A DNA stretch of 64,000 bases from Tubulanus polymorphus (Eukaryota; Animalia; Nemertea). Shown here piece after piece: positions 1,969 to 43,296 of this stretch. Position 1 is the stretch's first letter. Each line of letters opens with the position of its first letter. Both the position numbers and the translations under genes were made by a program. Location: contig NC_134030.1 in the NCBI RefSeq assembly GCF_964204645.1, forward strand, positions 15,004,110 through 15,068,109, read 5' to 3'. A model generated the notes under the pieces. That model worked only from the letters and a program-made list of their open reading frames with translations, was not told the origin of the DNA and searched no databases.

Positions 1969-2530
1969 AGTAATAGGGGTAATGGGCTTTCAAGCCAAAG
2001 GTCGAACGGTCGAGCTCATTAAAAAACAAAACATTAAAAGTAATTTAAAACTATAATATATTTTCATAACCGTGTGCATTTTATATTATAACTAAATATT
2101 TATTCTAAGATATCAATAATTTAAATTTAAAAAGCATATTGTATTAAATCAATTGGTCGCTCCACTTCGCTACCGCTCCGCTACACGACCAATTGATTTA
2201 TTTACAATACACAAATTCATATAATCAAATATACTTTAATAATAATAATTATTCTATTATTCAACTGAAATACACACGGTTATGAAAATATATTATAGTT
2301 TTAAATTACTTTTAATATTTGTTTTTAATGAACTCGACCATTCAACCTTTAACCTGAAAGCCCATTACCCCTATTACTCTTAAAATAATCATATACATGA
2401 ATAACATTTAAATTGACAGATTATTCAATATAAAAGTATATATTTACAACATTATTTTAATATTCATATTTGTGTGAGTTAGATTTTTAAACATTAAAAG
2501 TGTTAGTAAAGTGTGATTGAAATAATGCAT
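1969..2530 (+). repeat. Left terminal inverted repeat of copy A, with a 410-bp imperfect palindrome (1969-2378)
   Basis: Reverse complement of 54264-54717 (which has an internal deletion). Arms AGTAATAGGGGTAATGGGCTTTC...GAAAGCCCATTACCCCTATTACT. Confidence 0.93.
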
Positions 2531-2583: not shown

Positions 2584-5500
2584 ATGGAAGCAAATAAGTA
2601 CTACTGTCCAACATGTAATATCAATATAGATAAATCCCAAAAAGCAAGACACAATAAAACTAAAACACATTTAGAGAATAAATTGAAACTAGAATATAAA
2701 GATGATATATTAGAAACTAAATTAGATGAATTAAAGAATGAAAAAGAAACATATAAATGTGATACATGTAATCAATCATTCAGTGATAAAAGATATTATA
2801 AAGAACATTTAAAATCTAAAAGTCATATTATAAATAAGAATAATGATATTTTAGGTGAAGATTATTTCACTTAAGATAATGATAAGAAACAGAAGACAAT
2901 TAAAAGCATAAAAAATAAATTAAACAATAAAAGACCATATATGGAAGATGTAAGAAAATATATTAATTTATTGGATAATAAAAAAGATATAGAGATAACC
3001 GAAGCATTTAAAAGTGATATTGGTCCAGCAGCTATCGAGTTTAAATTTCATAAAGGAAAAACATTAGAAGAAAATAAAAAACATTTAGAAAATATAAAAG
3101 AAATAATAAAAATAATAACTGATGTTGAATATCCTAAAATAAGTATTTCATCAAAAGTTAAATTCATAAAATCTGAAGATAAACCAATATATAATATAAA
3201 TTCTCATTCACAACATATTATATCTAAACAACATATAGATAATAAATTAGATAAATGTTATAATGAAGTAAAAACTAAAATAGAAGAGAAATATTTTGAA
3301 GGATCTGGTTTAATATTTGATGAAATAATATTTATGATTTTACATGTTTATAACACAAAATATAATAAGTTAACTAAATCGAAACCAATTGATGAAAATA
3401 ATTTATCATATTATAAAGACCCAGATATTGAAGCATCGAGTTATATTAAACTACCATTTAAAACTAATGCTGTTATAAATGTACAAAATGAAGATGATAA
3501 ATGTTTTCTATGGGCTATAATAAGTTGTTTACACCCAGTTGAAGATTATAAACAACATAGTTTTAGATTAACTCATTATAAACCATTTGAAAATAATTAT
3601 AAGATAGATAAGTATCCTGTTATAATTAAAAACATCCCAAAATAGAAAGAGATAATAATTTAAGAATGAATGTATTTGATTTAATCAAATTACCAAATAC
3701 AAAAGGTAACAATATAAAACATTATACATTAGAACCTTTATATCTATCAAAAGATTATGATTCAAACGATGTTATAGATATACTATATTATGAGAATCAT
3801 TATATGTGGATTAAACAAATCGATTTATTTTTTAAATCAGAAAGTGATCACCATAAAATATATCTTTGTAGAAAATGTTTACATAGATTCAGTAATGAAA
3901 GTACATTATCAAATCATAAAGAATTATGTGAAAATCATGATTATTGTAAATTAGTTTTACCAAATGAAAAGGATAAAATATTAGAATTAAAAAAATATGA
4001 TTACAAAAATAAAGTACCATTTGTAATATATGGAGATTTTGAATCATTAAATAAAGAACTAACTGATCAAGATAGAAAAGAAATATATTATAAGAGAAAG
4101 AAATTAAATTCTAATGAAAATGATTATTCTGAAGAACCACCAAAAACAAATACTATTAAAAAGATTCATCAATCAGCTGCAGCTTTCGGGTTATATATTA
4201 AATCTGATTATCCAGAACTAATTGAAAGTGAATATTGTCATTATAGAAATGAAAATGTTATCAATCATTTTTGTGACTTATTAATTGAATATGAAATAAG
4301 ATTTAGTAAATTATTGAATACAAATATAGAAATTATAATGACAGAAGAAGATAAAGAAGAATTTGCGTTTGCAGATAAATGTTATTATTGTGAAAAGATA
4401 TTTAATTTTAAAGATAAAAAGTAAGAGACCATGATCATTTGAACGGAAAGTTTAGAGGCGCTGCACATGAGAATTGTAACTTACAAGCTAAGAAAATTAA
4501 TTTTGTACCAGTTATATTTCATAATCTATCAGGATATGATGCACATTTATTCATCAAACAGTTATGCCATAAAATAGAAGAAATTAATAATGAAATAGAA
4601 AGATGAAATTCAAATAGATCAAAAGATAAAATTCCAACTTATAAATTTAGAATGTTAGCTAAAACATCTGAGAATTATATATCATTCCAATTTGGTTGCC
4701 TAAGATTTATAGATTCATATAGATTTTTAAATAGATCATTAGATAACTTATCAAAATCATTAGTTGATGAAGAATTAAAAATATTAAAACAACACTATCC
4801 AAATAATGATGATTTTCAATTAATGAGATATAAAGGAGCAATTCCATATTCATTTTATAAATCACATGATGATTTCAATATAACTGAATTATTAAAAGAA
4901 CAATTTTATGATGAATTAAAAAATGAATATGTTAAAGATGAAGTATATAATAGAACATTGAATATTTGGAATCATTTCAAAATAGAAAATCATGGGCAAT
5001 TAGTAGATTTATATTTAAAATCAGATGTATTATTATTATCGGATATATTCGAAAGGTTTAGAGATGTAAACCTAAAATATTTCAATATTGATCCATGTCA
5101 TTGTTATTCATCACCAGGTTTAACATGGGATTGTGGATTAAAATTTACAGATATAAAAATGGATTTGTTAACAAATATAGATCAATTACTATTATTTGAA
5201 AAATCTATAAGAGGAGGAGTTTCAGGTGTATTAGGTGATAGATATTTCAATGTAAATGATAACCCTGGATATAAGTTATTATATATAGATGCAAATAATT
5301 TGTATGGTTGGGCAATGATGGAACCACAACCTTATGGAGTATTTGAATTAACTGAAGTTTTACAGAATGAAAATAATGATAAATTTGATTGGAAGAAAAG
5401 AATTCTAGATATTGCAGATGATTCAGATACTGGTTACTTCTTTGTTGTAGATTTAGAATATCCTGAAGATAAAAAATTTAAATCTAGAAATCTAGCATAC

Positions 5501-6619
5501 TGTCCCGAACATAAAACCGTTACTCATGAAGAATTATCAAATTATCAAAAAAGAATTAAACCTGAAAATCATATTCATACAGAAAAGTTAATGGTAACTC
5601 AAGAAGATAAATATAATTATGTAGTACATTATAGAATGTTAAAGTTTTATTTGAATCAAGGAATGGTTTTAAAAAAAGTACATAGCTATATTTCATTCAG
5701 TCAATCTAAGTGGTTAGAAAAATATATAGATTTTAACACCAAACAGAGAACTGAAGCTAAAACTGATTTCGAGAAAGATTTCTTCGAGTTAATGAATAAT
5801 GCATTCTATGGTAAGACTTGTGAAAATATTAGAAATAGAAATGATATTGAGTTAGTTAGTAATGGTAAAAGATTTAGACATTTACAAACATATCCTAAAT
5901 TTATAGGTAACAGAATATTTGATGAAAATTTAGCCGCAGTTAAAATGAGAAGAACATCAAAATTTAATAAACCAATCTATGTTGGCGCTTCAGTTTTAGA
6001 ATTATCAAAATTACTAATGTATGAATTCTATTATAATGTATTACAACCACTTTTTGGAGAAAAACATATAGAAATATTATATTTTGATACTGACAGTTAC
6101 ATATTAAAGATAAAAACTGATAACATAACTGATGATTTAAAAACATTAAAACATCATTTTGATTTCAGTAATTATCCTAAAGATCATGAATTGTTTAGCA
6201 ATGATAATAAGAAAGTTCCCGGTAAATTCAAAGATGAATTAGGTGGTGAAGAAATGATTGGATTCATCGGTATAAGATCTAAAATGTGTTCATATAAAAC
6301 TAAAGAACATGAAGCTAAAAAGTTAAAAGGAATAACCAAAAGTGTAGTAGAAAAGAATATTCATTTTTAAGATTACATCAATTGTATATTCAATGAAGAA
6401 GTTAGAAAACATAAGATGAGATGTTTAAGATCTGAAGATCATGAAATGTTTGTTGAAGAAATTGAAAAGATAAGTCTAAACCCATTTGATGATAAAAGCT
6501 ATATTTTAGATGATGGAATTCATACAGTTGCTTATGGTTGCAATTTAGATGAATACTTAAAATTTAAAAGAGAAGAAACAAAAGAGAACGAGATAATGAA
6601 AAGAATTTTAACGTGTTAA
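2584..6619 (+). pseudogene. polB: Protein-primed family B DNA polymerase (copy A), fragmented
   Basis: ExoI YGDFES, YLKSDVLLL, motif A YIDANNLYGWAM, motif B LMNNAFYGK, motif C YFDTDS; split over five track ORFs. Confidence 0.95.
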
Positions 6620-11979: not shown

Positions 11980-13242
11980 ATGAGTGGGAGTTATATTAAT
12001 CCTTCTAAGAATCATAGAATATCTAATGCTATTAAAGCAGAAAGATCACATCATATAATTACTCATAACCCTTCTTATATTAATCCCGATGAAACTTTAT
12101 ATGTTAGAATTCCTAGATTAACACAAAATACTTTTTACGTTCCAAATAGTATTTATTTATCAGCCGATATAAAAGTACTCGGTAATAATAATAATTATGT
12201 TGTTGATAATGTTGGAAGATATTTGATTAAAAAATTAACCATAAAGATCGGTCCAGAAACAGTTTTCTCATTAGATGATTATAATTTATTTATGCATTAT
12301 AAAGATTTATGGTTAACTAAAGAAAATAGAAATAATATGATATTTCAAGGCATCCAATCAGAAAACCAAAATAAATTAAGATCAGAAGCTAATAGCGCAA
12401 TATTAACTAATGCTGTAGATAAATTGATAAAAAGTATATATGGAATCAAATATAAAATTCCATTAGACTTTGAATTGATAAATAATAATGCACCTTTATA
12501 TAAATACGCAATTCAAGGAGACGTTATATTCGAAATAACATTTGCTCCTGTAAATGAAATTGTAATATCTAGCGTTAATAAAGATATGAGTTATAAATTA
12601 TCGAATATATGTTTAGAATATGACACAGTAACTGATGAAAATATTTCAAGTATAATTCAAACTCAATACAATCAAGGATTTTCATTATTATATGATTATA
12701 TTGATAAATTTAAAACTGTAACTATTAATGCAAATGATGAAATTATTAATGAGAATATTAACTTCCCAAGAAGATCTATTAAAGGTATATTAATATTTTT
12801 TACCATTGCAACATATACTAATGGCGCAATAAATGTTGATAATTATTATAATCCTGAAATAACAAAAGTAGAAATAACTATCGAAGGAATAGCAAATAAA
12901 ATATTTTGTCAAGGAATGAGAATGATAGATCAATGGCCAGAAATTATAAAACATTTTATGAATGAAAAAGTAAAATCATCTGAAAATTGTAATATTAATC
13001 AAATTGATTATTATACCGGTAATAAATATGCATTATGGTTAGATTTTAGAACAACAGAGGATAATTCATTACATGGTCCTGGAAAAAAACTACAGAACAC
13101 TAAAGATGGAATACAATTATTCATGACAAAGAATAAAGGAATCAAAAATTTTAAAATGCACATTTATATTATATCTGACGCGCAATTAAATATTGTAAAT
13201 TCATCGATACACATGAAAATAATGATGGTTTATATTATGTAA
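11980..13242 (+). CDS. Major capsid protein (double jelly-roll, predicted), copy A; last residues replaced by junction sequence
   Basis: 420 aa, beta-rich, highly conserved in all three copies; size and context fit a Polinton MCP. Confidence 0.75.
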   Translation: MSGSYINPSKNHRISNAIKAERSHHIITHNPSYINPDETLYVRIPRLTQNTFYVPNSIYLSADIKVLGNNNNYVVDNVGRYLIKKLTIKIGPETVFSLDDYNLFMHYKDLWLTKENRNNMIFQGIQSENQNKLRSEANSAILTNAVDKLIKSIYGIKYKIPLDFELINNNAPLYKYAIQGDVIFEITFAPVNEIVISSVNKDMSYKLSNICLEYDTVTDENISSIIQTQYNQGFSLLYDYIDKFKTVTINANDEIINENINFPRRSIKGILIFFTIATYTNGAINVDNYYNPEITKVEITIEGIANKIFCQGMRMIDQWPEIIKHFMNEKVKSSENCNINQIDYYTGNKYALWLDFRTTEDNSLHGPGKKLQNTKDGIQLFMTKNKGIKNFKMHIYIISDAQLNIVNSSIHMKIMMVYIM

Positions 13243-13244
13243 TA

Positions 13245-16200
13245 GTACTACTGTCCAACATGTAATATCAATATAGATAAATCCCAAAAAGCAAGGCACA
13301 ATAAAACTAAAACACATTTAGAGAATAAATTAAAACTAGAATATGAAGATGATATATTAGAAACTAAATTAGATGAATTAAAGAATGAAAAAGAAACATA
13401 TAAATGTGATACATGTAATCAATCATTCAGTGATAAAAGATATTATAAAGAACATTTAAAATCTAAAAGTCATATTAGAAATATGAATAATGATATTTTA
13501 GGTGAAGATTATTTTGATAAAGATAATGATAAGAAACAGAAGACAATTAAAAGCATAAAAAATAAATTAAACAATAAAAGACCATACATGGAAGATGTAA
13601 GAAAATATATTAATTCATTAGATAATAAAAAAGATATAGAGATAACCGAAGCATTTAAAAGTGATATTGGCCCAGCAGCTATCGAGTTTAAATTTCATAA
13701 AGGAAAAACATTAGAAGAAAATAAAAAACATTTAGAAAATATGAAAGAAATAATAAAAATAATAACTGATGTTGAATATCCTAAAATAAGTATTTCATCA
13801 AAAGTTAAATTCATAAAATCTGAAGATAAACCAATATATAATATAAATTCTCATTCACAACATATTATTTCAAAACAACATATTGATGATAAATTAGGTA
13901 AATGTTATAATGAAGTAAAAACTAAAATAGAAGAGAAATATTTTGAAGGATCTGGTTTAATATTTGATGAAATAATATTTATGACTTTACATGTTAATAA
14001 CACAAAATATAATAAGTTAACTAAATCAAAACCAATTGATGAAAATAACGTATCATATTATAAAGAACCAGATATTGAAGCATCGAGTTATATTAAACTA
14101 CCATTTAAAACTAATGCTGTTATAAATGTACAAAATGAAGATGATAAATGTTTTCTATGGGCTATAATAAGTTGTTTACATCCTGCAACTTATAATATTT
14201 GTAGATTAACTCATTATAAACAATTTGAAAATAATTATAAGATAGATAAGTATCCTGTTATAATTAAAAACATCCCAAAAATAGAAAGAGATAATAATAT
14301 AAAGATAAATGTATTTGATTTAATCAAATTACCAAATACAAAAGGTAACAATATAAAACATTATACATTAGAACCTTTATACCTATGAAAATATTATGAT
14401 TCAAATGGTGTTATAGATATATTATATTTTGAGAATCATTATATGTGGATTAAACAAATAGATTTATTCTTTAGAACAGAAAGTGATCACCATAATAAAA
14501 TATATCTATGTAGAAAATGTTTACATAGATTCAGTAATGAAAGTACATTATTAAATCATAAACAATTATGTGATAATCATGATTATTGTAAATTAGTTTT
14601 ACCAAATGAAAAAGATAAAATATAAGAATTAAAAAAATATGATTACAAAAATTAAGTTCCATTTGTAATATATGGAGATTTTGAATCATTAAATAAAGAA
14701 TTAACTGATCAAGATAGAAAAGAAATATATTATAAAAGAAAGAAATTAAATTCTAATGAAAATGATTTTTCAGATGAACCACCAAAAACAAATACTATTA
14801 AAAAGATTCATCAATCAGCTGCTGCTTTCGGGTTATATATAAAATCTGATTATCCAGAACTAATTAAAAGTGAATATTATCATTGTAGAAATGAAAATGT
14901 TATCAATCATTTTTGTGACTTATTAATTGAATATGAAATAAGATTTAGTTAATTACTGAATACAAATATAGAAATTATAATGACAGAAGAAGATAAAGAA
15001 GAATTTGCGTTTGCAGATAAATGTTATTATTGTGAAAAGATACTTAATTTTAGAGATAAAAAAGTAAGAGACCATGATCATTTGAATGGAAAGTTTAGAG
15101 GCGCTGCACATAAGAATTGTAACTAACAAGCTAAGAAAATTAACTTTGTACCAGTTATATTTCATAATTTATCAGGATATGATGCTCATTTATTTATCAA
15201 ACAGTTATGCCATAAAATAGAAGAAATTAATAATGAAATAGAAAGATTAAATTCAAATAGATCAAAAGATAAAATACCAACTTATAAATTTAGAATGTTA
15301 GCTAAAACATCTGAGAATTATATATCATTCCAATTTGGGTGTTTAAGATTTATAGATTCATATAGATTTTTAGGTAGTTCATTAGATAACTCATTAGTTG
15401 ATGATGAATTGAAAATATTAAAACAACACTACCCAAATAATGATGATTTCCAATTAATGAGATATAAACGATCAATTCCATATTCTTTCTATAAAAATCA
15501 TAATGATTTCAATATAACTGAATTATTGAAAGAACAATTCTATGATGAATTAAAATGAATATGTTAAAGATGAAGTATATAATAGAACATTGAATATTTG
15601 GAATCATTTCAAAATAGAAAATCATGGACAATTAGTAGATATATATTTAAAATCAGATGTATTATTATTAACTGATATATTCGAAAGGTTTAGAGATCTA
15701 AACCTAAAATATTTCAATATTGATCCTTGTCATTGTTATTCATCACCAGGATTAACATGGGATTGTGGATTAAAATTTACAGATATAAAAATGTATTTGT
15801 TAACAAATATAGATCAATTATTATTATTTGAAAAATCTATAAGAGGAGGAGTTTCAGGTGTATTAGGGGATAGATATTTCAATGTAAATGATAACCCTGG
15901 ATATAAGTTATTATATATAGATGCAAATAATTTGTATGGTTGGGCAATGATGGAACCACAACCTTATGGAGTATTTGAATTAACTGAAGTTTTACATAAT
16001 GAAAATAATGATAAATTTGATTGGAAGAAAAGAATTCTAGATATTGCAGATGATTCAGATACTGGTTACTTCTTCGTTGTAGATTTAGAATATCTTGAAC
16101 ATATTAAATTTAAATCTAGAAATCTAGCATACTGTCCAGAACATAAGACTGTTACTCATGAAGAATTATCAAATTATCAAAAAAGAATTAACCCGAAAAT

Positions 16201-20070: not shown

Positions 20071-20435
20071 TGTAGACTCCAAACACGAAAATTTACGAAG
20101 TCGCAGATCTCTCAATGTCAAACTGACGTCTTACATTTATTATCATCATTACCATCGAAGCCGTTTCTAAACAAGCAACAACAACTAAATTAACACACAA
20201 ATATTATAATAATAACAAGAAATTCGGCTAATAACAAATAACTTACAGAACATTTGAGAGTATTAAATCATGTAGCAGCCACAACGTCAGTACACACAAA
20301 TATAAAAATTCAATACCCACAGATCACCAGATCACCAGACTTTATACAATTTCACACATGAGTAACTTACACACTAGGTTGAGCATGAGCAGTAGAACTG
20401 CCAGAAATATGACCATAATACAAACATAAACTACA
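20071..20435 (-). repeat. 3' LTR (365 bp)
   Basis: Direct repeat of 26033-26390; by eye differs by one substitution and a 7-bp indel. Confidence 0.97.
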
Positions 20436-20701
20436 TTCCCGGCCATAAAATACTAAAGTTAACTAAAATTTAACTTAGATTTTATAGTCTTATAAATTTA
20501 CTTAACGTCACAAAACTGAATAATACGTGTACTACGGACAAATAATATGTTACATACCGACAACTAGTGAGCAAACTAATATACCAACACAAATAATTAT
20601 ACATCATAAACTGAAGTTATAATAATATTACACATTAGATAAAGAACTACTGTAATCCTTAATGTATAATCTATTCAAACGTACATTACTTATTCCATTA
20701 C

Positions 20702-23700
20702 TTATTCCACTGCTCGTTCCAGCATAACGCACTTATTAACTGGACGTATAGGTGATGGAGAAGAGCGGGTTTTTATTTTAGCACTTCGCACAACACCATC
20801 TGAACCTGGATGCACTTCAATGACACGACCCAAAGGCCATTGGGCGCGGGGCAGTTGCTCATTTGATACTATAACAAGATCACCTACAGCTAAGTTTCGT
20901 TGCGTATGAAACCATTCCTGACGCTGCTGCAACGATGGCAAATATTCCCGAGTCCATCGCCGCCAAAATACAACAGCCATGTACTGAACCTGGCGCCAAC
21001 GTTTCCTGATGTAAAGATCACGTGCTTGAAATATACCGGGGGGTAAAGTTGAGCCAGCTCTCAGTAACAACAAGTGATTGGGCGTAAGAGCTTCTAAATC
21101 TAACGGATCATCTGAAACAGCAGTTATAGGCCGACTGTTAATAACAGCTTCCACCTCACACATTAAAGTGGATAAGCCCTCATCATCTAGTACTTGAACT
21201 TTCATGAAAGCAGCAAGAACGTTACGGACTGTACGAATTTGACGCTCCCACACACCGCCCATATGGGAAGCAGCAGGCGGATTGAAATGCCACTCAATTT
21301 CCTTCTGTAACAGAAAATCGTGAATGTTATCATGGTTCCAATCTTGTATAGCCTCACGCAATTCCCTATTTCCTCCGACGAAGTTGGTACCGTTGTCACT
21401 CCAAATACCTGTAGGTGTACCTCGTCTTGCCATGAATCTGCGTAAGCCATTAATAAATGATGTTGTATCAAGCGAACGGCATATTTGTATGTGTACAGCT
21501 CGAATTGACAAACAAGTGAATATGCATCCGTAGCGTTTAACTTGCGAACGAAGCTGCTTTACGAGAAACGGACCAAAGAAGTCCACACCCACGTATGTAA
21601 ATTGGGATTCACAAGGAGTTACCCTTTCTTCGGGTAAATCAGCCATCTTGTTTTCTAAGTATTTACCATGCCTACGTCTACAATCGTAACAGTGATTCAA
21701 AACCTTCCATACTGCAGATTTCCCGTTGACGATCCAGAATTTAGCACGAATTACCGACAGAATATGATCACGACCAGAATGACCATACATCTCGTGATAC
21801 TCTTGGATAATCAGATCTGAAATATGCGCAGATTTTGGCAGGATAATAGGATGCTTAACTCGATCGGAATACGAAGATCGCCTTAATCGTCCTCCTACGC
21901 ACAGCAACCCATCAATCATAATCGGATCAAGCTTTATGATCGAACTAGATTCCTTGATCTTTCCACCAGCCAACTCTTCTGAATAATACAGCTGTTGTAC
22001 ATATGAAAGCACGGCTTTCTCGGCTTGCCTCAATTCACGTACCGTTATAGGATCAGCAACTTTGACACCATTCAACCGTCCTGCCAAATTTACTTTGAAA
22101 AGTAGAATCCAAGCGATACATCGCTTCAGCCGTGTCCATGACGAAAATCGCTGGAAGTACATCATACATGGGTCCTCCGCCTCAGTCACTACCAGTGTAC
22201 AGATATGTTTTTGTATCTTCTTCACTTCGACATCAGTAGTGGGTATAGCATCCACATCGGGTTGATTCGGCCACTCCGACTCCAAAGACGATAGAAATGC
22301 CGGCCCCGTCAACCATCTTGAGTTTCCATCCAGCAACTGTTGAACCTTAAACCCGCGTGATGCATCGTCTGCTGGATTATCAGCACCATTAACAAAGAAC
22401 CATTGATCAGGGGTAGTCAGGTCTCTGATAACAGCAATCCGGTTTGCAACATAGACCTGAAAGCGTAGATTCTCATTCCTGATATATTTTAATACGGATG
22501 TGCTATCAGTCCAGAAGTACGACGGTTCCACCTTGATACCAATCTCATTGCGAATTAAACGGTCGAGCCTCGCGGCGACTGTTGCTGCAGCTAACTCCAG
22601 TCTAGGGATGGTTATAATCTTCAAAGGTGTAACCCGTGATTTAGCCATGATGAAACTACAATGAATTTCACCAGCTTCATTTACCAACCGTAAATAGCTC
22701 ACAGCTCCATAGCCACATTCAGAAGCGTCACTGAAATGATGCAGCTGAGCAGAGCAGACGTCTCCAAAGTTCGTAGGCTTGAAACATCGACCTATGCGTA
22801 AATTCTCTAACTTCGGAAGTTCGGCCAACCATGAACGCCATTTCTCCTCATAAATCGCTGGTATCTCATCATCCCAGCCAAGTTTCATCTTACATAATTC
22901 TTGCATAAGTGATTTTACAGGCAAGGTCACTGGAGCGGTAAATCCTATCGGGTCGTATAACGAACTTGCTACAGAGAGCACTCCACGACGGGTAAGTGGT
23001 TTATCCTTTATCTTAACCTTAAAGAGGAACTTATCGGTTTCCATATGCCAGAGCATCCCGAGAGCTCGCTCTGTAGGAAGTTGCGATTGTTGACCAAAAT
23101 CCATATCCTTTAACGTATTAGCACGCTCAGACTCGGGCACCGACTCAATTACTCGTCGAGAGTTGGAGGAAATCTGAGTTAAACGAAAGCCACCACGATG
23201 AAGTAATTCTATCAGTTGATTCAGCAACCGAATAGCAGCGTCCTCAGTGCATACCGACTTGAGACAATCATCTACGTAAAAGTTCTGTAGTACAGTATTT
23301 ACGGTTGTCTTATCGTATTTATCGTCGTTATCGAAAGCAGAATGCCTTAACGCAAAGTTACTGCAACTTGGTGAGGAAGATGCTCCAAAGAGATGCACCT
23401 GCATTCGATATTCCTCTGGCTCCTTGGATAGATCGCAGTCAGACCACCACAGGAAGCGCAATGCATCTTTCATGTCGGGTGTTACTCGAACCTGATGAAA
23501 CATTCCCTCAATGTCTCCCATAAATGCTACTGCGTCTTGTCTGAACCGCAGAAGTACACCAACTAATCGATTGGTCAAATCAGGACCTTGTAGCAACTGA
23601 TCATTTAGCGAAGTTCCATGGTACCTAGCAGAGCAGTCGAACACAACTCGAATTTTCTTCTTTTGTGGATGGTAAACTGTATGATGTGGCAAATACCAGA

Positions 23701-24685
23701 CCATGCCATCTTGACGGTCAAGTTCTCCTGCAGGAATCTTCTCGCAGAAACAAGACTGAATCATCTTTTGAATAAACCCGACGTATTCACTAAACAAACT
23801 GTCATCTTTCTCCAACTTTCTCTTCAGCAGATTCAGCCTATGAGTAGCTACAGGCCGATTATTGGGTAAAGACGGTGGATTATGGCGCCAAGGCAAAGCC
23901 ATCTCGTAATGACCATCCTTTGTCAGCTGAACCGTAGATTCCATGATGGCGAGAGCCCTTTTATCTTCTTGAGACATCTCGGTCTTATCATCGTATACAC
24001 AATCATTGAATTCCGCGTTACAGTAGGTAAGAAACTGCTGAGACAATACTTCATCGCCTTTTATAACGTTAGTAACCGTTCGCCTTGCAATATCACTTCT
24101 ACCCAATGGACCGTTTATTGCCCAACCGAATAAAGTCTTGACAGCATACGGACCACCACATTCACTTCTTCTTATTTCAGATTGTTCCAATGCTACGCTG
24201 TTGTCATTCCCGATTAAAAGGCCAATTTCCGCGTCAATCTGGGGTAGTACAATACCATTCATGTGTCGCCATCTATCAACATCTTCTTGACGAGGAATAT
24301 CATCTTTCGATACAGGTAGGTATGGGCGAGAGTACACATTCGTTAGCTCTATCATATACGTCTCGTTCAAATCGTAAACTTCAAAGCTATCAATCGGAAT
24401 TTTTTCTCGTTCCATAGTCGTCAAAGAAAGTCGAGTTTTTCTGGTTCCAACGCCAAGACGATACATCAAATCTTCAGTACAAAACGTCGAATTCGAACCC
24501 GTATCCAAAAGCGCATAAGTAAGAACGACGTCATTCTCATTAGATCTCAATTTCACCGGAACAATAGGAAGACCAACCACTTTCTCCGATTCTCTTATAA
24601 AGGCATTATGCACTTGTGACTTTGTATTGTCCGATGAGCTACTACCGCGGTCACCACCATTGTCGAATTTATTAATATGTAACAA
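20702..24685 (-). CDS. pol: BEL/Pao pol region: aspartic protease, reverse transcriptase, RNase H (Pao A17), integrase
   Basis: LLDTGS; DIEGMFHQV, HLFGASSSP, FYVDD; FSDAS, TIPRLEL, WTDS, NPADDASRG; VDFFGP, SDNGTNF, GVWERQIR. Confidence 0.96.
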   Translation of the reverse strand: MLHINKFDNGGDRGSSSSDNTKSQVHNAFIRESEKVVGLPIVPVKLRSNENDVVLTYALLDTGSNSTFCTEDLMYRLGVGTRKTRLSLTTMEREKIPIDSFEVYDLNETYMIELTNVYSRPYLPVSKDDIPRQEDVDRWRHMNGIVLPQIDAEIGLLIGNDNSVALEQSEIRRSECGGPYAVKTLFGWAINGPLGRSDIARRTVTNVIKGDEVLSQQFLTYCNAEFNDCVYDDKTEMSQEDKRALAIMESTVQLTKDGHYEMALPWRHNPPSLPNNRPVATHRLNLLKRKLEKDDSLFSEYVGFIQKMIQSCFCEKIPAGELDRQDGMVWYLPHHTVYHPQKKKIRVVFDCSARYHGTSLNDQLLQGPDLTNRLVGVLLRFRQDAVAFMGDIEGMFHQVRVTPDMKDALRFLWWSDCDLSKEPEEYRMQVHLFGASSSPSCSNFALRHSAFDNDDKYDKTTVNTVLQNFYVDDCLKSVCTEDAAIRLLNQLIELLHRGGFRLTQISSNSRRVIESVPESERANTLKDMDFGQQSQLPTERALGMLWHMETDKFLFKVKIKDKPLTRRGVLSVASSLYDPIGFTAPVTLPVKSLMQELCKMKLGWDDEIPAIYEEKWRSWLAELPKLENLRIGRCFKPTNFGDVCSAQLHHFSDASECGYGAVSYLRLVNEAGEIHCSFIMAKSRVTPLKIITIPRLELAAATVAARLDRLIRNEIGIKVEPSYFWTDSTSVLKYIRNENLRFQVYVANRIAVIRDLTTPDQWFFVNGADNPADDASRGFKVQQLLDGNSRWLTGPAFLSSLESEWPNQPDVDAIPTTDVEVKKIQKHICTLVVTEAEDPCMMYFQRFSSWTRLKRCIAWILLFKVNLAGRLNGVKVADPITVRELRQAEKAVLSYVQQLYYSEELAGGKIKESSSIIKLDPIMIDGLLCVGGRLRRSSYSDRVKHPIILPKSAHISDLIIQEYHEMYGHSGRDHILSVIRAKFWIVNGKSAVWKVLNHCYDCRRRHGKYLENKMADLPEERVTPCESQFTYVGVDFFGPFLVKQLRSQVKRYGCIFTCLSIRAVHIQICRSLDTTSFINGLRRFMARRGTPTGIWSDNGTNFVGGNRELREAIQDWNHDNIHDFLLQKEIEWHFNPPAASHMGGVWERQIRTVRNVLAAFMKVQVLDDEGLSTLMCEVEAVINSRPITAVSDDPLDLEALTPNHLLLLRAGSTLPPGIFQARDLYIRKRWRQVQYMAVVFWRRWTREYLPSLQQRQEWFHTQRNLAVGDLVIVSNEQLPRAQWPLGRVIEVHPGSDGVVRSAKIKTRSSPSPIRPVNKCVMLERAVE

Positions 24686-24730
24686 TGTTGAATGCTTTCC
24701 GTCACGGCAGATTGCGCACTGTGTTGCCTT

Positions 24731-26005
24731 TCAACAATTCCTGGCTCGATGACGAGGGATTAAACAGTTAAAGCACAAACCTTTGTCTCTGACGAAATTG
24801 CGTCGCTCTTCATACGATTTGGCTTTGAAGACTGCACAATCGGTCAACGCATGTTCGGCCTGACACATACTACAAGATTTGTGGCCTAATCCCTGTGGTG
24901 AAAATGTATTGTCCTCGCGCTTGACATCACTCGATCTGCTGTAAAACGATTTTGCGAATTTATTTTGCTGCGACCTTTTTTGACCATCATTGATATTGCC
25001 GAAAACTGGATGATTAATGATTCGTGCTTCATTTTCTACGAATTTGCTAATATCAGCGAGAGTTATTTCTCGAAATGCGAACTGCGTAATATAGTCTGCC
25101 TTTACGCGCCATTTTTTTCTAATTTCAAATGGTAAACGACCAATTAGCTTTCTCAGATTATCTGGATTCTCTATTTTGCTCAAGTATCCAATTTGTTCCA
25201 ACGTATTTTTACAACTTGTCAAGGCTACAGAAAATTTCGACAATGACTCTCCATCTTCCCATTTGATAAGCGGGCCGTTGATTACGCGATCAACTAACGT
25301 AGTTGCGATTCGATAACTATCACCATAACGTGTCAGCAAAAGTTGCGTGGCTTCTGGATAACCCACGGCTGGATCTTTGGGTAAGTAGCTTTTTACTAAC
25401 TCGTGTGCATCTCCCTTTGTATATTGGGTAAGGAAATACAATCGCTCGCTATTGTTTACAGTTTTCGCTTCTATCAGATTTTCGAAAGCGCGGATAAAGT
25501 AACAGTACTCCGTGACATCGCCAGAGAAAATAGGCATTTCTGGTTTGGGCAGCGACATACGAACCATACTTTCTATCATCAACTGCAGACCAGGATCAGT
25601 ACCGGAACTCTGTGGATTTCCGCTTAATGAATTGTCCGGGCTAGACGGCTGCGATGCCTGTGCTTTCGGCGTAAAACTAGGTGCTTCGACCATTAAATAT
25701 TGATTTGTTTTTAAACGCAAATTACATGTGAGATTTTCTTCCGTATCGAAATAAACAAATGACGCTTCGATTTCTTCATCATCTAACAGTGAGTCATGCA
25801 CGACTTGGTGGGCATTTTCGAATTTTTTCCAGGCTTCATCAATTCTTAACAAAGCAGCGTTCACTTCATCAGCTGAGAGATTCTTCTTTAACATATCCCT
25901 CAACTCATTTCTTTTCTTAGTGAGCGCGGCTTTATATCCAGCTCTGGATCGTTTCAATGTTTCTAAATCATCGCCGTGTGGCTTACTCTTTCCGTCGACA
26001 GACAT
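24731..26005 (-). CDS. gag: BEL/Pao gag region with zinc knuckles
   Basis: FSGDVTEY..F, CSMCQAEHALTDC and CFNCLIPRHRARNC; in frame with pol across one TGA. Confidence 0.92.
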   Translation of the reverse strand: MSVDGKSKPHGDDLETLKRSRAGYKAALTKKRNELRDMLKKNLSADEVNAALLRIDEAWKKFENAHQVVHDSLLDDEEIEASFVYFDTEENLTCNLRLKTNQYLMVEAPSFTPKAQASQPSSPDNSLSGNPQSSGTDPGLQLMIESMVRMSLPKPEMPIFSGDVTEYCYFIRAFENLIEAKTVNNSERLYFLTQYTKGDAHELVKSYLPKDPAVGYPEATQLLLTRYGDSYRIATTLVDRVINGPLIKWEDGESLSKFSVALTSCKNTLEQIGYLSKIENPDNLRKLIGRLPFEIRKKWRVKADYITQFAFREITLADISKFVENEARIINHPVFGNINDGQKRSQQNKFAKSFYSRSSDVKREDNTFSPQGLGHKSCSMCQAEHALTDCAVFKAKSYEERRNFVRDKGLCFNCLIPRHRARNC

Positions 26006-26032
26006 ATTCTTCTTACAATTGTTCTAAACCAA

Positions 26033-26390
26033 TGTAGACTCCAAACACGAAAATTTACGAAGTCGCAGATCTCTCAATGTCAAACTGACGTCTTACATTT
26101 ATTATCATCATTACCATCGAAGCCGTTTCTAAACAAGAAACAACAACTAAATTAACACACAAATATTATAATAATAACAAGAAATTCGGCTAATAACAAA
26201 TAACTTACAGAACATTTGAGAGTATTAAATCATGTAGCAGCCACAACGTCAGTACACACAAATATAAAAATTCAATACCCACAGATCACCAGATCACCAT
26301 ACAATTTCACACATGAGTAACTTACACACTAGGTTGAGCATGAGCAGTAGAACTGCCAGAAATATGACCATAATACAAACATAAACTACA
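26033..26390 (-). repeat. 5' LTR (358 bp)
   Basis: TG...CA ends; followed on the minus strand by TTGG (PBS position). Confidence 0.97.
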
Positions 26391-30279: not shown

Positions 30280-30720
30280 ATGGAAGGAGGTAAAGTATAT
30301 AAACATATTCCATACATCGATACACGTGAAAATAATGATGGTTTATATTATGTAATACCTTGTAATATAGCTTTGATATTTGATCCTATTTTCAAAATTT
30401 ATAAAACTAAACTAATAGAAATAGATAATAATAAAAGTGAAGTTGTTGATAATTTAAGTAATGTAATTGATAATAATGTAATACCTTCTACATCTAATAA
30501 TGTAATACCTTCTACATCTAATAATGTAATACCCTCTACATCTAATAATGTAATACCTACTACATCTAATAATGTAATACCCTCTACATCTAATAATTTA
30601 ATACCCTCTACATCTAATAATGCAATAATATTAAATGTTAGTGAAAATAGAAATTATTGTGATTATTGTAAAGGTGAATTTTCAAACGCTCCATCAAATT
30701 GGAATAATCATATGAATACA
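30280..30720 (+). pseudogene. MEGGK protein 5' part (Pro/Ser/Thr repeats + zinc finger), interrupted by copy C
   Basis: Homologous to 42158..43114; the TIR starts at 30721. Confidence 0.8.
30472..30620 (+). repeat. Coding 24-bp tandem repeat x6 (NNVIPSTS)
   Basis: AATAATGTAATACCTTCTACATCT units. Confidence 0.9.
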
Positions 30721-31292
30721 AGTAATAGGGGTTTAGTTGTTTCAGATCAAAGGTCGAACGGTCGAGCCCATTAAAAAACAAATATTAAAAGTAATTAAAA
30801 AACTATAATATATTTTCATAACCGCGTGCATTTTATATCAAAACTAAATATTTATTATAAGATATCAATAATATAAAAAGCATATTGTATTAAATCAATT
30901 GGTCCGCTTCGCTACCGCTCCGCTCCACGACCAATTGATTTAATTACAATACACAAATTTAAATAATCAAATATATTCAAATGATAATAATTATTCTATT
31001 ATTCAACCGAAATGCACGCGGTTATGAAAATATATTATAGTTTTTTAATTACTTTTAATATTTGTTATTAATGAACTCGATCATTAAACCTTTAACCCGA
31101 AACAACTAAACCCCTATTACTCTTAAAATATTCACATATATATGAATAACATTTAAATCATTGAACTTCTAAAATCAATTTTAATAAAAAATATAGTATT
31201 AAAATGGAAGCAAATAAATACTACTGCCCAACATGTAATATCGATATAGACAAGTCTCAAAAAGCAAGACACAATAAAACTATAACACATTT
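30721..31292 (+). repeat. Left TIR of copy C with terminal fold-back 30721-31121; includes the first ~29 codons of polB
   Basis: Reverse complement of 48542-49089. Confidence 0.95.
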
Positions 31293-34200
31293 AGAGAATA
31301 AATTGAAACTAGAATATAAGGATGATATATTAGAAACTAAATTAGAAGAATTAAAGAATGAAAAAGAAACATATAAATGTGATACATGTAATCAATCATT
31401 CAGTGATAAAAGATATTATAAAGAACATTTAAAATCTATAAGTCATATTGGAAATAAGAATAATGATATTTTAGGTGAAGATTATTTTGATAATGATAAC
31501 GATAAGAAACAGAAGACAATTAAAAGAATAAAAAATAAATTAAACAATAAAAGACCATATATGGAAGATGTAAGAAATTATATTAATTCATTAGATAATA
31601 AAAAAGATATAGAGATAACCGAAGCATTTAAAAGTGATATTGGTCCAGCAGCTATTGAGTTTAAATTTCATAAAAGTAAAACAATAGAAGAAAATAAAAA
31701 ACATTTAGAAAATATGAAAGAAATAATAAAAATAATTACAGATGTTGAATATCCTAAAATAAGTATATCAGTTAAAGTAAAGTTTATAAAATCTGAAGAT
31801 AAACCAATATATAATATAAATTCTCATTCACAACATATTATATCTAAACAACATATAGATGATAAATTAAATAAATGTTATAATGAAATAAAAACTAAAA
31901 TAGAAGAGAAATATTTTGAAGGATCTGGTTTAATATTTGATGAGATAATATTTATAACTTTACATGTTTATAACACAAAATATAATAAGTTAACTAAATC
32001 AAAACCAATTGATGAAAATAATTTATCATATTATAAAGAACCCGATATTGAAGCATCAAGTTATATTAAACTACCATTTAAAACTAATGCTGTAATAAAT
32101 ATACAAAATGAAGATGATAAATGTTTTCTATGGGCTATAATAAGTTGTTTACATCCTGCAACTTATAATATTTGTAGATTAACTCATTATAAACCATTTG
32201 AAAATAATTATAAGATAGATAAGTATCCTGTTAGAATTAAAAACATCCCCAAAATAGAAAGAGATAATAATATAAAGATAAATATATTTGATTTAATCAA
32301 ATTACCAAATACAAAAGGTAACAACATAAAACATTATACATTAGAACCTTTATACCTATCAAAAGATTATGATTCAAATGATGTTATAGATATACTATAT
32401 TATGAGAATCATTATATGTGGATTAAAAGAATTGATTTATTTTTTAAATCAGAAAATGATTTTGATAATAAAATATATCTATGTAGAAAATGTTTACATA
32501 AATTCAGAACTGAAGGTGCATTATTAAATCATAAACAATTATGTGATAATCATGATTATTGTAAATTAGTTTTACCAAATAAAAAAGATAAAATATTAGA
32601 ATTCAAAAAATATGATTACAAAAATAAAGTACCATTTGTAATATATGGAGATTTTGAATCATTAAATAAAGAATTAACAGATAAAGATAGAAAAGATATA
32701 TATTATAAAAGAAAGAAATTAAATTCTAATGAAAATGATTTTTCAGATGAACCACCAATAACAAATACTATTAAAAAGATTCATCAATCAGCTGCAGCTT
32801 TCGGGTTATATATTAAATCTGATTATCCAGAACTAATTGAAAGTGAATATTATCATTACAGAAATGAAAATGTTATCAATCATTTTTGTGACTTATTAAT
32901 TGAATATGAAATAAAATTTAATGAAAAGTTAAATAAGAATATAGAAATAATTATGACAGAAGAAGATAAAGAAGTATTTGAGTTTGCAGATAAATGTTAT
33001 TATTGTGAAAAGATATTTAATTATAAAGATAAAAAAGTAAGAGACCATGATCATTTGAATGGAAAGTTTAGAGGCGCTGCACATGAGAATTGTAACTTAC
33101 AAGCTAAGAAAATTAATTTTGTACCAGTTATATTTTATAATCTATCAGGATATGATGCACATTTATTTATATAACAGCTATGTCATAAAATAGAAGAAAT
33201 CAATAATGAAATAGAAATATTAAATTCAAATAGATCAAAAGATAAAATACCAACTTATAAATTTAAAATGTTAGCTAAAACATCTGAGAATTATATATCA
33301 TTCCAATTTGGTTGTCTAATATTTATAGATTCATATAGATTTTTAAATAGTTCATTAGATAACTTATCAAAATCATTAGTTGATGATGAATTAAAAATAT
33401 TAAAAGAATATTACCCAAATTATGATGATTTTAAATTAATGAGATATAAAGGAGCAATTCCATATTCTTTCTATAAAAATCATAATGATTTTAACATAAC
33501 TGAATTATTGAAAGAACAATTCTATGATGAATTAAAAAATGAATATGTTAAAGATGAAGTTTATAATAGAACATTGAATATTTGGAATCATTTCAAAATA
33601 GAAAATCATGGGCAATTAGTAGATTTATATTTAAAATCAGATGTATTATTATTAACCGATATATTCGAAAGGTTTAGAGATGTAAACCTAAAATATTTTA
33701 ATATTGATCCATGTCATTGTTATTCATCACCAGGATTAACATGGGATTGTGGATTAAAATTTACAGATATAAAAATGGATTTGTTAACAAATATAGATCA
33801 ATTACTTTTATTTGAAAAATCTATAAGAGGAGGTGTTTCAGGTGTATTGGGTGATAGATATTTCAATGTAAATGATAATCCTGGATAAATTATTATACAT
33901 AGATGCAAATATCCTTTATGGTTGGGCAATGATGGAACCACAACCTTATGGGATGTTTGAAATAACTGAAGTTTTACAAATTGATAGATTTGATTGGAAG
34001 AAAAGAATCCTAGATATTGCAGATGATTCAGATATTGGTTACTTCTTTGTTGTAGATTTAGAATACCCTGAAAATATTAAATTAAAATCTAGAAATCTAG
34101 CATATTGTCCCGAACATAAAATTGTTAAACATGAAGAATTATCAAATTATCAAAAAAGAATTAAACCCGATAATCATATTCATACTGAAAAGTTAATGGT

Positions 34201-35227
34201 AACTCAAGAAGATAAATATAATTACGTTGTGCATTATAGAATGTTAAAATTCTATTTGAATCAAGGAATGATATTAAAAAAAGTACATAGATATATTTCA
34301 TTTAATCAATCTAAGTGGTTAGAAAAATATATAGATTTTAATACTACACAGAGAACTGAAGCTAAAACTGATTTTGAGAAGGATTACTTTAAACTAATGA
34401 ATAATGCGTTCTATGGAAAAACATGTGAAAACATAAGAAATAGAAGTGATATTGAGTTAGTTAGTAATGGTAAAAGAATTAGACATTTACAATCGTATCC
34501 GAAATTCATAGGTAACAGAATATTTGATGAAAATTTAGCAGCAGTTAAAATGAGAAGAACAAGTATGAAATTTAATAAACCAATTTATGTTGGTGCATCG
34601 GTTCTAGAAATTTCAAAATTATTAATGTATCAATTTTACTATAACATATTACAACCCCATTTTGGAGAAAAAAATATAGAAATGTTATATCTAGATACTG
34701 ACAGTTATATATTAAAGATAAAAAGTGATAATATAAAAGATGATTTAAAAATATTAAATCACCATTTTGATTTTAGTAACTATCCAAAAAATCATGAACT
34801 ATTTAGCAATGATAATAAAAAAGTTCCTGGTAAGTTTAAGGATGAATTAGGTGGTGAAGAAATGATAGAGTTCATAGGTATTAGATCTAAAATGTATAGT
34901 TATAAAACTAAAGAACATGAAGCTAAAAAGTTAAAAGGAATTACCAAAAGCGTTGTTGAAAAGAATATTCATTTCAAAGATTACATCAATTGTATATTTA
35001 ATGAAGAAGTTAGAAAACATAAAATGAAATGTTTAAGATCTGAAGATCATGAAATGTATATTGAAGAGATAGAGAAGATAAGTCTAAACCCATTTGATGA
35101 TAAAAGATATATTTTAGATGATGGAATCCACACAGTCGCCTATGGTTGCAATTTAGATGAATATATAAAATTCAAAAGAGAAGAAACAAAAGAAAATGAA
35201 ATTATGAAAAGGATTCTAACGTGTTAA
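31204..35227 (+). pseudogene. polB: Protein-primed DNA polymerase B (~1340 aa), copy C; one in-frame stop (33172) and one frameshift (~33885)
   Basis: N-terminal C2H2-like fingers, CFLWAI...HYMWIK, exonuclease with a CxxC..DHDH..GAAH..CN insert, YIDAN.LYG, KLMNNAFYGK, YLDTDS. Confidence 0.96.
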
Positions 35228-35255
35228 TAAATTTCAATAAAAATTTGTATAATAA

Positions 35256-35597
35256 ATGGAGAGTAAACAAGTACACAATGAATTCTTAGATAGAATTAAA
35301 GATACCACAAATGTAAAATCTGTAGATTATAAATTCAAAAAGTTAACAGAATTAACAATTCACAAGAAATATTTAATTACTAACATTGAAACAGTTACTA
35401 ACAAATATGGAGATAAATTAGTAATTCATTTAGAATATGAAGGATTAAAAGGAAATAAATATAAATTCAGAACTTATTTACCAGATAGATTTCATAGATT
35501 ATCAAGTGAAGATCTAGAAGAATTATGTTCTGGAGATTTCTATTTCGTATATAAAGGTAAGAATGAAAAAGGGCACCATGAAATAGATTTCGAATAA
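35256..35597 (+). CDS. 113-aa conserved protein next to polB (possible OB-fold DNA-binding protein)
   Basis: Intact; FKKLTEL...KYGDKLVIHL...YLPDRF beta-strand pattern. Confidence 0.75.
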   Translation: MESKQVHNEFLDRIKDTTNVKSVDYKFKKLTELTIHKKYLITNIETVTNKYGDKLVIHLEYEGLKGNKYKFRTYLPDRFHRLSSEDLEELCSGDFYFVYKGKNEKGHHEIDFE

Positions 35598-35614
35598 GAA
35601 AATACGTAAAATAA

Positions 35615-36373
35615 ATGGCGGAATTAAAAGAATACAGAATATTTGTTGATTCTAGAAGACTTACAAATTATAAATCACATAATTTACTAGTACAATTAGA
35701 TAGAGAATTCAAGAATTGTGTAGATTTAAAATTAGTAAATATAAGTTTATGTAATTCTTTTTACAATGTATCGGATAAGTCTATTGAACATAGAGTCTTT
35801 TTAATTTATGATAGAAATAAAAGTAAATGGTTTCATCTTTATCTTAAACCAGGATTATATAATTTAGAAACATTAGCTCAAGAAATTAATAGAAGAGCTC
35901 GGTTGAAAATGGGTGCATCTGCTGGATTTGGATTAAGACTGATTAAAAGTGATAGTTCTGATAAAATAAGAATAAAATTAGGTAATGAAGATCAACATCA
36001 ATTTCTAGTTAAAAAACCCTTAGCTAAAATTTTAGGAATAACCCCAGATGTAAGGATACGCAATGCTGATGCTACACCAAATATAATGCCATTTACACAT
36101 TTTTATATTTATTGCAATTTAATCGATCCTACAAAAACATTCGAAGCAACTAAAGATATAACTTGTAATTCTGGTTTACTAAACATTTTACCATTGAAGA
36201 ATGTTAAAGAATTTGGAACGCAAATAAATTATAATTTAACAGAATGTGATTTCAAACCATGCATTCCTCGTTTTAATAATTTTAGATTAGAAATTAGAAA
36301 TCATAATGGATACTTAATTGATTTAAATAATTTCCCTGTAATTTATGAATTAGTTATAAGATGTAAAGAGTAA
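35615..36373 (+). CDS. Minor capsid (penton-like, single jelly-roll) protein
   Basis: Typical pattern IFVDSR / NSFYN / PGLYNLETL / YIYCNLI / LEIRNHNGYLIDLN..VIYELVI. Confidence 0.82.
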   Translation: MAELKEYRIFVDSRRLTNYKSHNLLVQLDREFKNCVDLKLVNISLCNSFYNVSDKSIEHRVFLIYDRNKSKWFHLYLKPGLYNLETLAQEINRRARLKMGASAGFGLRLIKSDSSDKIRIKLGNEDQHQFLVKKPLAKILGITPDVRIRNADATPNIMPFTHFYIYCNLIDPTKTFEATKDITCNSGLLNILPLKNVKEFGTQINYNLTECDFKPCIPRFNNFRLEIRNHNGYLIDLNNFPVIYELVIRCKE

Positions 36374-36389
36374 TTTTTTCATTATATAA

Positions 36390-36660
36390 ATGAATATAAC
36401 TGTTGGACCGAGTATATGTTTTGGGTTTGATTTTAAACATGGTAAAGAAATGAGAAAATTATAATATAGAAAAAGTAATTGATTTAATTAAATCACCTTT
36501 AGAATATTATGAATTAAATGAAGATGGAATTATTGATGATATTAAAAACATATTATCCAAAATATATGATAATCATAAAACTAGTAATGAAATAAATGTT
36601 GAAATAATCATAAATAAGATAACTAAATATTTTGATGATAGTAATTTTTTTGATAAATAA
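36390..36660 (+). pseudogene. MNITVG protein with internal deletion
   Basis: Homologous to 7800..8141. Confidence 0.7.
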
Positions 36661-36882
36661 ATGAGTGATAATAAGTGGATAATAACTGGATTATATAATG
36701 GCGCATTACTATCAGTTGGAACTGTTGGTTATTCAATGGTATTAAAAAAAGTATTCAAAATGGGAAGTGTTAATGTTGATAGATTTGATATAAATGATAT
36801 TTTAAAGTTAACGTTAGCAGTTACTTTATCTAATTTAACTATTGATTATTTGGAAAAACAAAAATATATTCCTCCCATATAA
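36661..36882 (+). CDS. 73-aa hydrophobic/membrane protein
   Basis: Two hydrophobic segments; conserved between copies. Confidence 0.8.
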   Translation: MSDNKWIITGLYNGALLSVGTVGYSMVLKKVFKMGSVNVDRFDINDILKLTLAVTLSNLTIDYLEKQKYIPPI

Positions 36883-36906
36883 ATGTATAATTTTTTTGCT
36901 AAATAA

Positions 36907-37329: not shown

Positions 37330-37348
37330 TAATTTTTTTTCTAAATAA

Positions 37349-37783: not shown

Positions 37784-37799
37784 TTTTTTAATTATATAA

Positions 37800-39101: not shown

Positions 39102-39117
39102 TTTTTTTATTATGTAA

Positions 39118-40833: not shown

Positions 40834-40877
40834 ACCATGATATCAAAAAATAAATAATTAATTTTTTTGTTAAATAA

Positions 40878-42125: not shown

Positions 42126-42157
42126 AATTTTAACTTTAATAAAAATATATATAATAA

Positions 42158-43288: not shown

Positions 43289-43296
43289 ACAAATAG

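Follow-up and report, generated by a model that had tools for sequence, protein, structure and literature searches.

The window, by which we mean the whole 64,000-nucleotide stretch of Tubulanus polymorphus DNA analysed here, carries AT-rich copies (about 22-25% GC) of one Polinton/Maverick family. Judged by its polymerase, integrase, ATPase and terminal inverted repeats (TIRs), the element is a Polinton, and its copies are arranged as follows:

1969 to about 13203: copy A, starting at the left TIR
1969-2530: left TIR of copy A, matching the right TIR (54264-54625) at 97% identity along 364 nt
from 13244: copy B, head-to-tail behind copy A, without a left TIR
30721-49089: copy C, nested within copy B
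54717: end D, the close of the remaining copy B and the rightmost end

The TIRs of the A/D pair match over 364 nt at 97% plus a further 94 nt, and those of copy C, which are mirror images, over 548 nt at 99%; both pairs start with AG, and both have the form by which Polinton TIRs are recognised (100-1500 bp, AG start). Target site duplications of 5-8 bp were sought at these ends: the flanks of A and D differ, and the right end of C is deleted. Because the copies are nested and rearranged, the A and D ends perhaps derive from separate insertions. The TIR of copy C reaches into the first 89 nt of the pPolB frame (48542-48713 and 31121-31292), so that its right-hand member holds an inverted pPolB start.

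At 13203-13244 lies a head-to-tail junction, the product of a tandem duplication of about 10.6 kb, where copy A breaks off in the capsid region and copy B, lacking a TIR, begins with the 5' end of pPolB. At the right junction of copy C within copy B, 28 nt of the C end and about 205 nt of B are missing, and in this single case the break falls exactly at the first conserved stem mismatch described below (column 28/29). Copy B also holds a Pao/BEL LTR retrotransposon (20071-26390) with 365-bp LTRs that are 97.8% identical and with long open ORFs. A coding tandem repeat of 24 nt (units such as NNVIPSTS) occurs at 30447-30662 and 42358-42543, and the ORF that contains it is the insertion site of copy C. 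Flanking the element at 219-1933 are two minus-strand ORFs (406 and 165 aa, 43-45% GC), for which Pfam gave only a weak DUF6589 match and which probably belong to a different mobile element that took up copy A. In the host flank at 62201-62782, a 54-nt arm with three inverted copies lies in a 110-nt tandem array.

The genes that define the element, and those that bear on its replication, are these:

4652-6370, plus strand: pPolB polymerase-domain ORF of copy A (PF03175, E=4e-13)
31204-33174, plus strand: N-terminal ORF of the broken pPolB of copy C, with zinc fingers, D1 fold, vOTU, exonuclease start and EndoVII/HNH insert
40878-42002, plus strand: probable major capsid protein (PF16903, Capsid_N, E=0.012, weak and below the curated cut-off)
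43297-43908, minus strand: A32-like packaging ATPase (PF04665, E=5e-11)
43901-44989, minus strand: rve integrase with chromodomain (PF00665, E=2e-9)
52664-53335, minus strand: stand-alone HNH-like nuclease ORF (weak PF13395 match, E=0.094; the sequence shows an HIDH..PL..N motif)

The pPolB gene lies in pieces in copies A, B and C, and the stand-alone nuclease is the last long ORF ahead of the right TIR. No Pfam family of maturation proteases matched the element ORFs, and no HUH/Rep or telomere-resolvase family was found by Pfam among the 26 ORFs, several of which fall in no family. In the ORF at 31204-33174 the terminal-protein (D1) domain occupies aa 136-256 and the EndoVII/HNH domain aa 585-633. 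The structural model of this ORF (mean pLDDT 79.7) shows aa 136-256 as a sheet with two helices, in which Ser241, invariant in 58 of 58 aligned proteins, lies between helix 2 and strand 4, the last strand; the linking residue of the terminal protein (TP) has been placed between the same two elements (PMC11161782, section 6). Foldseek returned no match at E<=0.001 and no OTU chain among the matches listed, which are headed by Y-family polymerases (E about 2e-3 to 1e-2), one of these being a little-finger chain on its own; the little finger of a Y-family polymerase is held to be the likely origin of the TP (PMC11161782). The vOTU residues Cys307 and His403 are invariant in 16/16 and are not among the strictly invariant positions of the 58-row alignment, and Cys, His and Gly residues are conserved in the EndoVII-family domain. 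Full-length pPolB relatives number 166, the named ones being in insects and a coral; together with the retrotransposon they would point to an animal host. The polymerase is predicted to be still protein-primed.

Directly after pPolB stands a 113-aa ORF (35256-35597), whose relative in the locus L022 sits just before pPolB. Its nearest clusters are unnamed eukaryotic proteins, and the nearest named cluster, with a phi29 single-strand binding family on 44% of its members (score 0.85), serves as a lead only.

The left end of copy A is a 410-nt imperfect palindrome that opens with AGTAATAGGGG at the first base of the element, and such a palindrome is present at all four of the four Polinton ends in the window:

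1969-2378: 410-nt fold-back of copy A, starting flush at its left end
1969-2081, plus strand: outer arm, the real element end, whose first 24 nt pair perfectly with the inner arm
2000-2013, plus strand: two GGTCGA motifs, kept unbroken by the outer arms of A, C and D and by a relative with a plain end, L025
2145-2200: central 15-bp perfect stem, 2145-2159 with 2186-2200, and a 26-nt loop between
2169-2181, minus strand (the 3'-terminal strand): GCGGAGC and GCGGTAGC mini-hairpin motifs in the central loop
2268-2378, minus strand: inner arm, an inverted copy of the end with C-to-T states, its first motif GGTTGA, pairing G·T on the 3'-terminal strand
30721-31121: fold-back at the left end of nested copy C, 401 nt, polarity 7:1
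48713-49089: fold-back at the right end of copy C, its outer 28 nt missing, a 99% mirror of the left TIR with the loop not inverted
54416-54717: fold-back at end D, shortened to 302 nt by an internal loss of about 105 nt, polarity 7:0

The layout is a well-paired stem of about 112 bp, then a degenerate middle, then the 15-bp stem with its 26-nt loop. An initial annotation of this DNA had described the fold-back as running from the element's first base, and it is real: as DNA, 1969-2378 folds at -108.8 kcal/mol on the plus strand and -122.9 on the minus strand, with z at about -22 and none of 100 shuffles equally stable. Terminal pairs are perfect over 23-24 positions in copies A and C. Folding both strands with DNA and RNA parameters, a check that the annotation had proposed, gave the same answer with each: the 3' strand is more stable than the 5' strand by 6.5-14 kcal/mol as DNA and by 32-45 as RNA, the DNA gain over the stem only being small (4-9 kcal/mol). 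The full TIR panhandle reaches -615 kcal/mol, against -96 and -101 for two local folds; because the panhandle is so much more stable, the hairpin could matter only kinetically or with the 5' end unavailable.

In the predicted fold the paired 3'-OH is flush and faces the genome, so that the geometry proposed earlier, of a flush 3' end with template running into the genome, is upheld with one caveat on the position of the end. The base just outside it is A in three of three intact ends (1968, 30720 and 54718), and the base after the inner arm is C. Either the true element end could lie one base further out, or the A could reflect a target preference; were the end longer, the A would face the C at 2379, giving once more a G·T pair on the 3' strand.

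The four ends agree in their internal arrangement. The central loop has one orientation at 4/4 ends, end D being without the outer half of the central stem; inverted loops number 0/4 in this small, related sample, outer and inner arm states show no swap among the window ends, and no head-to-head TIR junction occurs in the window. Of the flip/flop isomers for which the initial annotation had proposed a search, none appears among these four ends, the loop keeping one orientation and the arms their states. The refuting case that it had named, a palindrome occurring as a free MITE, fails as well: no free copy exists in the window, and each of the four copies marks an element end and shares its inner flank with the others. 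The fold-back is part of the terminal repeat of this Polinton lineage. Its TIR opens with a 300-410-nt palindrome of one-strand polarity, which sets it apart from the pPolB2 Polintons compared below.

This polarity lies in the mismatches. Transitions in the 112-bp stem that give G·T on the 3'-terminal strand, set against those that give it on the other, number 8:0 in A, 7:1 in C and 7:0 in D; with the poorly aligned centre included they are 15:0 in A and 12:2 in C. The annotation had counted about ten A·C mismatches in copy A, all of one polarity, and about 9 to 1 in copy C: the direction holds in both copies, and the counts come out slightly different, at 8 (15 with the centre) and at 7:1 (12:2). 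The mirrored polarity that it had seen at 54416-54717 is borne out by the 7:0 of end D. Because copies A, C and D are related, we also counted distinct columns, which pooled over copies stand at 13:1 (binomial p=0.0018; 14 columns). Mismatch columns 28, 35 and 47 are common to A, C and D, and column 39 to A and C. A C in the outer arm answers to a T in the inner arm in 8 of 19 columns, and a G to an A in 1 of 23 (p=0.006). Transitions to transversions stand at 14:3 in the stem vs 334:262 in the body (p=0.044), a weak difference obtained with one gap-adjacent column dropped.

The body of the element, compared among three copies over about 6.8 kb, leans the other way: on the top strand C>T changes amount to 76/600 vs 66/886 for G>A (p=0.001), a bias of opposite sign to that of the stem, and the first 1.5 kb of the body has no bias (9/124 vs 15/170). 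A general strand bias was rejected on this ground. CpG decay was likewise rejected as sole cause, CpG making up only 2/8 of the C/T columns, and an assembly artefact was rejected in view of the imperfect arms, the lineage-specific mirrored changes, the occurrence at four ends and the presence of a relative elsewhere. The loop is poor in C on the 3' strand (12 C vs 31 G).

Changes are also mirrored between the arms. Comparison of A with C reveals eight columns changed alike in both arms (six within 13-19, plus 80 and 107), representing about three events. The mismatches at columns 28, 35 and 47 fall between these mirrored events and persist in A, C and D; because continuous copying from the end would erase them, they look maintained. 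Column 35 turns the first GGTCGA into GGTTGA in the inner arm, and this first motif is broken in the inner arms of A, C, D and L022. The GGTCGA motifs may be binding sites of the origin or the integrase.

The central loop carries a second kind of motif. Of the 10 GCGNAGC matches in the 64 kb, eight fall within the four central loops, on the 3' strand throughout, chance giving a mean of 1.96; they stem from one unit, repeated in tandem and shared by related ends, and so do not count as eight separate events, and the motif was chosen after inspection of the loop. Similarly, four of the six matches to GCGNNAGC are in the loops, on the 3' strand. Mini-hairpin motifs of this type are described as very stable as DNA, much weaker as RNA, and present at ssDNA origins (PMC13037366). 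The mismatch polarity, the opposite bias of the body and loop motifs confined to one strand together support the earlier proposal that folding is favoured on the 3'-terminal strand, probably in the form of ssDNA.

Relatives provide a partial view of how this end arose. A metagenome scan covered 25 of 64 parts, with 80 of 346 relatives kept. Among 106 pPolB loci (L015-L120), six have an inverted repeat that reaches into the terminal 20 nt at one or the other end of the locus, a proportion that is no frequency estimate because most loci show no element end. Two, L052 and L022, were counted as end palindromes; L046 was set aside because its inverted repeat abuts a truncated pPolB, L114 as low-complexity AT, and L072 and L110 for their arms of 16-17 nt.

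In L022, with 70% identity in the N-terminal part of pPolB, there is an inner inverted end in which AGTAATAG is followed by AGGTTGA at the same spacing. A motif test, devised after the match was seen, gave 0/200 shuffles; local alignment was not significant against shuffles (51/2000) and picked another AT-rich stretch. The contig opens with a 65-nt palindrome centre, cut within the outer arm, and its loop is without GCGNAGC-type motifs. A 3'-strand polarity may be read from the inner arm, the arm visible on the contig, the outer arm lying off it. L025 (N-terminal part 53% identical) has a plain end with both GGTCGA motifs and without the inner arm, and the structure is thus dispensable in the wider group. 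Because L025 is plain and L022 has the inner end, the outer arm would be the ancestral end and the inner arm a derived inverted copy predating the L022 split. The distant, apparently intact Polinton L052 (31%) has a 249-nt palindrome at the contig start (L052:3-251) with no 3'-strand polarity (5:3, 13 transversions).

Three further loci with TIR pairs (L018, L020 and L118) have no long terminal palindrome, and their tips may be cut. Internal intergenic palindromes of 90-184 nt occur in other pPolB elements (L109:4657-4840; L080:7068-7183 and 14379-14466), those of L080 being related to each other and placed on both sides of the pPolB module. In viral contigs, none of five candidate close relatives was confirmed and the end pattern had 0 matches in these contigs; 14 pattern matches in viral contigs gave no BLAST match to the TIR. 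Five matches in prokaryote genomes, with no long palindrome and no pPolB, were treated as chance.

Several known systems share parts of this arrangement. The pPolB2 Polintons/Mavericks have the same pPolB with TP, vOTU and HNH/EndoVII insert (10.1101/2023.08.22.554363; PMC11161782), as well as the same rve integrase, A32 ATPase and TIRs of about 550 bp starting with AG. The standard Polinton model is a racket or panhandle between both TIRs (PMC4196379), and panhandles are the usual model for displaced strands, for which direct evidence is said to be lacking (PMC11886824). In a word search of the text available to us, 'hairpin' and 'palindrom' were absent from a nematode Polinton survey and 'hairpin' from the adintovirus papers. 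Terminal palindromes with proposed hairpin priming are already known from virophages and PLVs: endogenous elements of these kinds in Halocafeteria seosinensis likewise have palindromes in the TIR near the end, and hairpin priming is put forward there as a hypothesis (bioRxiv 10.64898/2026.07.28.741278). Those palindromes are about 52 nt long, stand mostly in elements without pPolB, and in the portions of the preprint consulted have no strand polarity described, whereas the present element has palindromes of 300-410 nt, keeps a pPolB with TP, and exhibits G·T polarity and mirrored changes. A strand-polarised hairpin at a Polinton end was not found in the openly available article texts that we searched.

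Comparison with other linear replicons is instructive. Streptomyces telomeres likewise combine TP priming with a folded 3' strand, GNA-loop mini-hairpins and fold-back end repair (PMC5449611), and the element end most likely works like such a telomere, by analogy and not by membership. Those telomeres are bacterial, with an internal origin, Tap/Tpg, no family B polymerase and many short palindromes (PMC5449611), while the element has one long stem and a pPolB-fused TP in place of Tap/Tpg. Parvovirus termini, too, have a mismatched terminal palindrome with the 3'-OH pointing into the genome, and some occur in a single orientation (PMC8242256); unlike them, the element has no HUH Rep/NS1 that we could find, and has its own protein-primed polymerase, integrase and ATPase. 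With no Rep found in 26 ORFs and no isomers among four related ends, it is not a parvovirus-type replicon by membership, although its working may be partly similar. Bidnaviruses took their pPolB from Polintons, and their ITRs are described as being without such hairpins (PMC4061559). Poxvirus telomeres are mismatched, AT-rich terminal hairpins with flip/flop forms (PMC8956199), and an EndoVII-like domain, from a family of junction-cutting nucleases, is at hand in the element; unlike poxviruses, the element shows no flip/flop at 4/4 ends, its integrated ends hold both arms as duplex, and the protein-priming domains are kept.

We tentatively favor, at somewhat less than an even chance, a role in which the 3' strand folds back locally, so that the end is protected and repaired and protein priming is given a duplex origin, with the inner end motif disabled. 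The palindrome would have arisen once, through fold-back copying of the end, which would account for its flush boundary. Strand-displacement copying or excision would free the 3' strand to fold onto the inner inverted copy of the end, and trimming with re-extension, or patchy stem repair, would carry changes from arm to arm. Lasting C/T differences would break the inner GGTCGA, leaving the inner copy unused as an end in duplex DNA, while the 3' strand, with its G·T pairs, would still fold and the 5' strand, with A·C pairs, would fold less firmly. The folded end would then form a short duplex origin for TP priming, with no need of the far end or a long-range panhandle. The basis for this reading is the palindrome at four ends, the polarity, the mirrored changes, the strand-specific motifs and the retention of the TP and vOTU residues, in a sample of four related ends in one window and two informative relatives. 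Against it count the far greater stability of the full panhandle, the small DNA margin, the L022 loop without motifs, L052 without polarity, L025 without an inner arm, and the C-poor loop on the 3' strand, which deamination would also give. Folding of the 3' strand is a prediction, and all the mechanisms proposed here are inferred from sequence.

In a first rival, which we regard as unlikely, the structure would be an accident kept by copying, in which fold-back duplication, conversion between arms and C-to-T change on a transiently single-stranded 3' strand left a fold without a job, the outer arm being held by its own function. Read as changes on the 3' strand, the transition mismatches can all be C-to-T with a single exception, and the loop composition fits. 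L025 does without the inner arm, end D has lost 105 nt within the palindrome, unrelated internal palindromes exist in Polintons (L109), and accidental annealing is named as an alternative for the virophage and PLV ends (bioRxiv 10.64898/2026.07.28.741278). Yet the bias of the body is opposite, in A, C and D mismatches are retained at the same columns, with columns to either side made alike, and the inner arm has the T state even in L022, at 70% identity in the N-terminal part of pPolB. Deamination is expected to spare paired stems, and the paired stem is where these mismatches lie; the mini-hairpin motifs, moreover, stand on the same strand.

A paired 3'-OH with template ahead of it would be expected to be extended by a polymerase, and this gives rise to a second rival, self-priming, which we think unlikely. 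Extension of the folded 3'-OH into the genome would yield a second strand with no need of a protein primer, perhaps in the initial round that follows departure from the chromosome, the DNA then bearing no TP; the resulting closed end or head-to-head junction would be opened by the EndoVII/HNH domain of pPolB or by the stand-alone HNH, and the persistent mismatches would set an active arm apart from an inactive one, as does the bubble at the left end of some parvoviruses (MVM). The flush geometry, in which terminal pairing is perfect over 23-24 positions in copies A and C, suits this model, as do the conserved Cys, His and Gly of the EndoVII-family domain and the HNH-like ORF near the right TIR, and the same model has been proposed for virophage and PLV ends (bioRxiv 10.64898/2026.07.28.741278). 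Because parvovirus termini of a single form exist (PMC8242256), the lack of flip/flop is not decisive against it. It is harder to reconcile with the retained TP fold, Ser241 and vOTU residues, which leave the TP unexplained unless both modes are used, and with the lack of an HUH/Rep or telomere-resolvase family in the 26 ORFs; these points make rolling-hairpin replication in place of protein priming, one of the initial annotation's readings, less likely as the main route. No loop is inverted at 4/4 ends, and no head-to-head TIR junction is seen in the window. Within this polymerase group the HNH insert is common (PF02945 in many relatives; 10.1101/2023.08.22.554363), and is thus not tied to palindromic ends, while the palindromes of the preprint are mostly in non-pPolB elements (bioRxiv 10.64898/2026.07.28.741278). 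An open end would also have to be rebuilt for integration, adding extra steps.

The two modes might be joined in a hybrid cycle, to which we give a low probability: self-priming on the 3' strand would rebuild the duplex without TP, the EndoVII/HNH domain within the polymerase would reopen the end at the conserved mismatches or the junction, and TP priming would amplify the product. Finally, a divergent transcript from a TIR promoter, forming a long, G·U-rich outward hairpin that stops where the linear DNA stops and is perhaps diced to small RNAs, is very unlikely: the favored strand is 32-45 kcal/mol more stable with RNA parameters, is antisense to the nearest genes at both ends, and has the G·U pairs typical of RNA hairpins, but there is no Rfam match at E<=0.1, the loop motifs are of a DNA type whose RNA counterparts are much less stable (PMC13037366), and an RNA role requires neither a stem flush with the first base nor arm-to-arm copying.

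Under the reading we favor, the mismatches and loop motifs that promote folding of the 3' strand would be a sequence record of a single-stranded intermediate in the life of a Polinton. A Polinton has to shed its TP in order to integrate, and its return to a replicating linear genome has been left open (PMC11161782, section 6). A hybrid cycle, if true, would explain how Polintons restart after the loss of TP and would give the nuclease insert of the polymerase a job. If the fold self-primes, a single replicon would unite protein-primed and hairpin-primed replication; if its job is limited to protection and repair of the end, this Polinton lineage would offer a eukaryotic parallel to Streptomyces telomeres.
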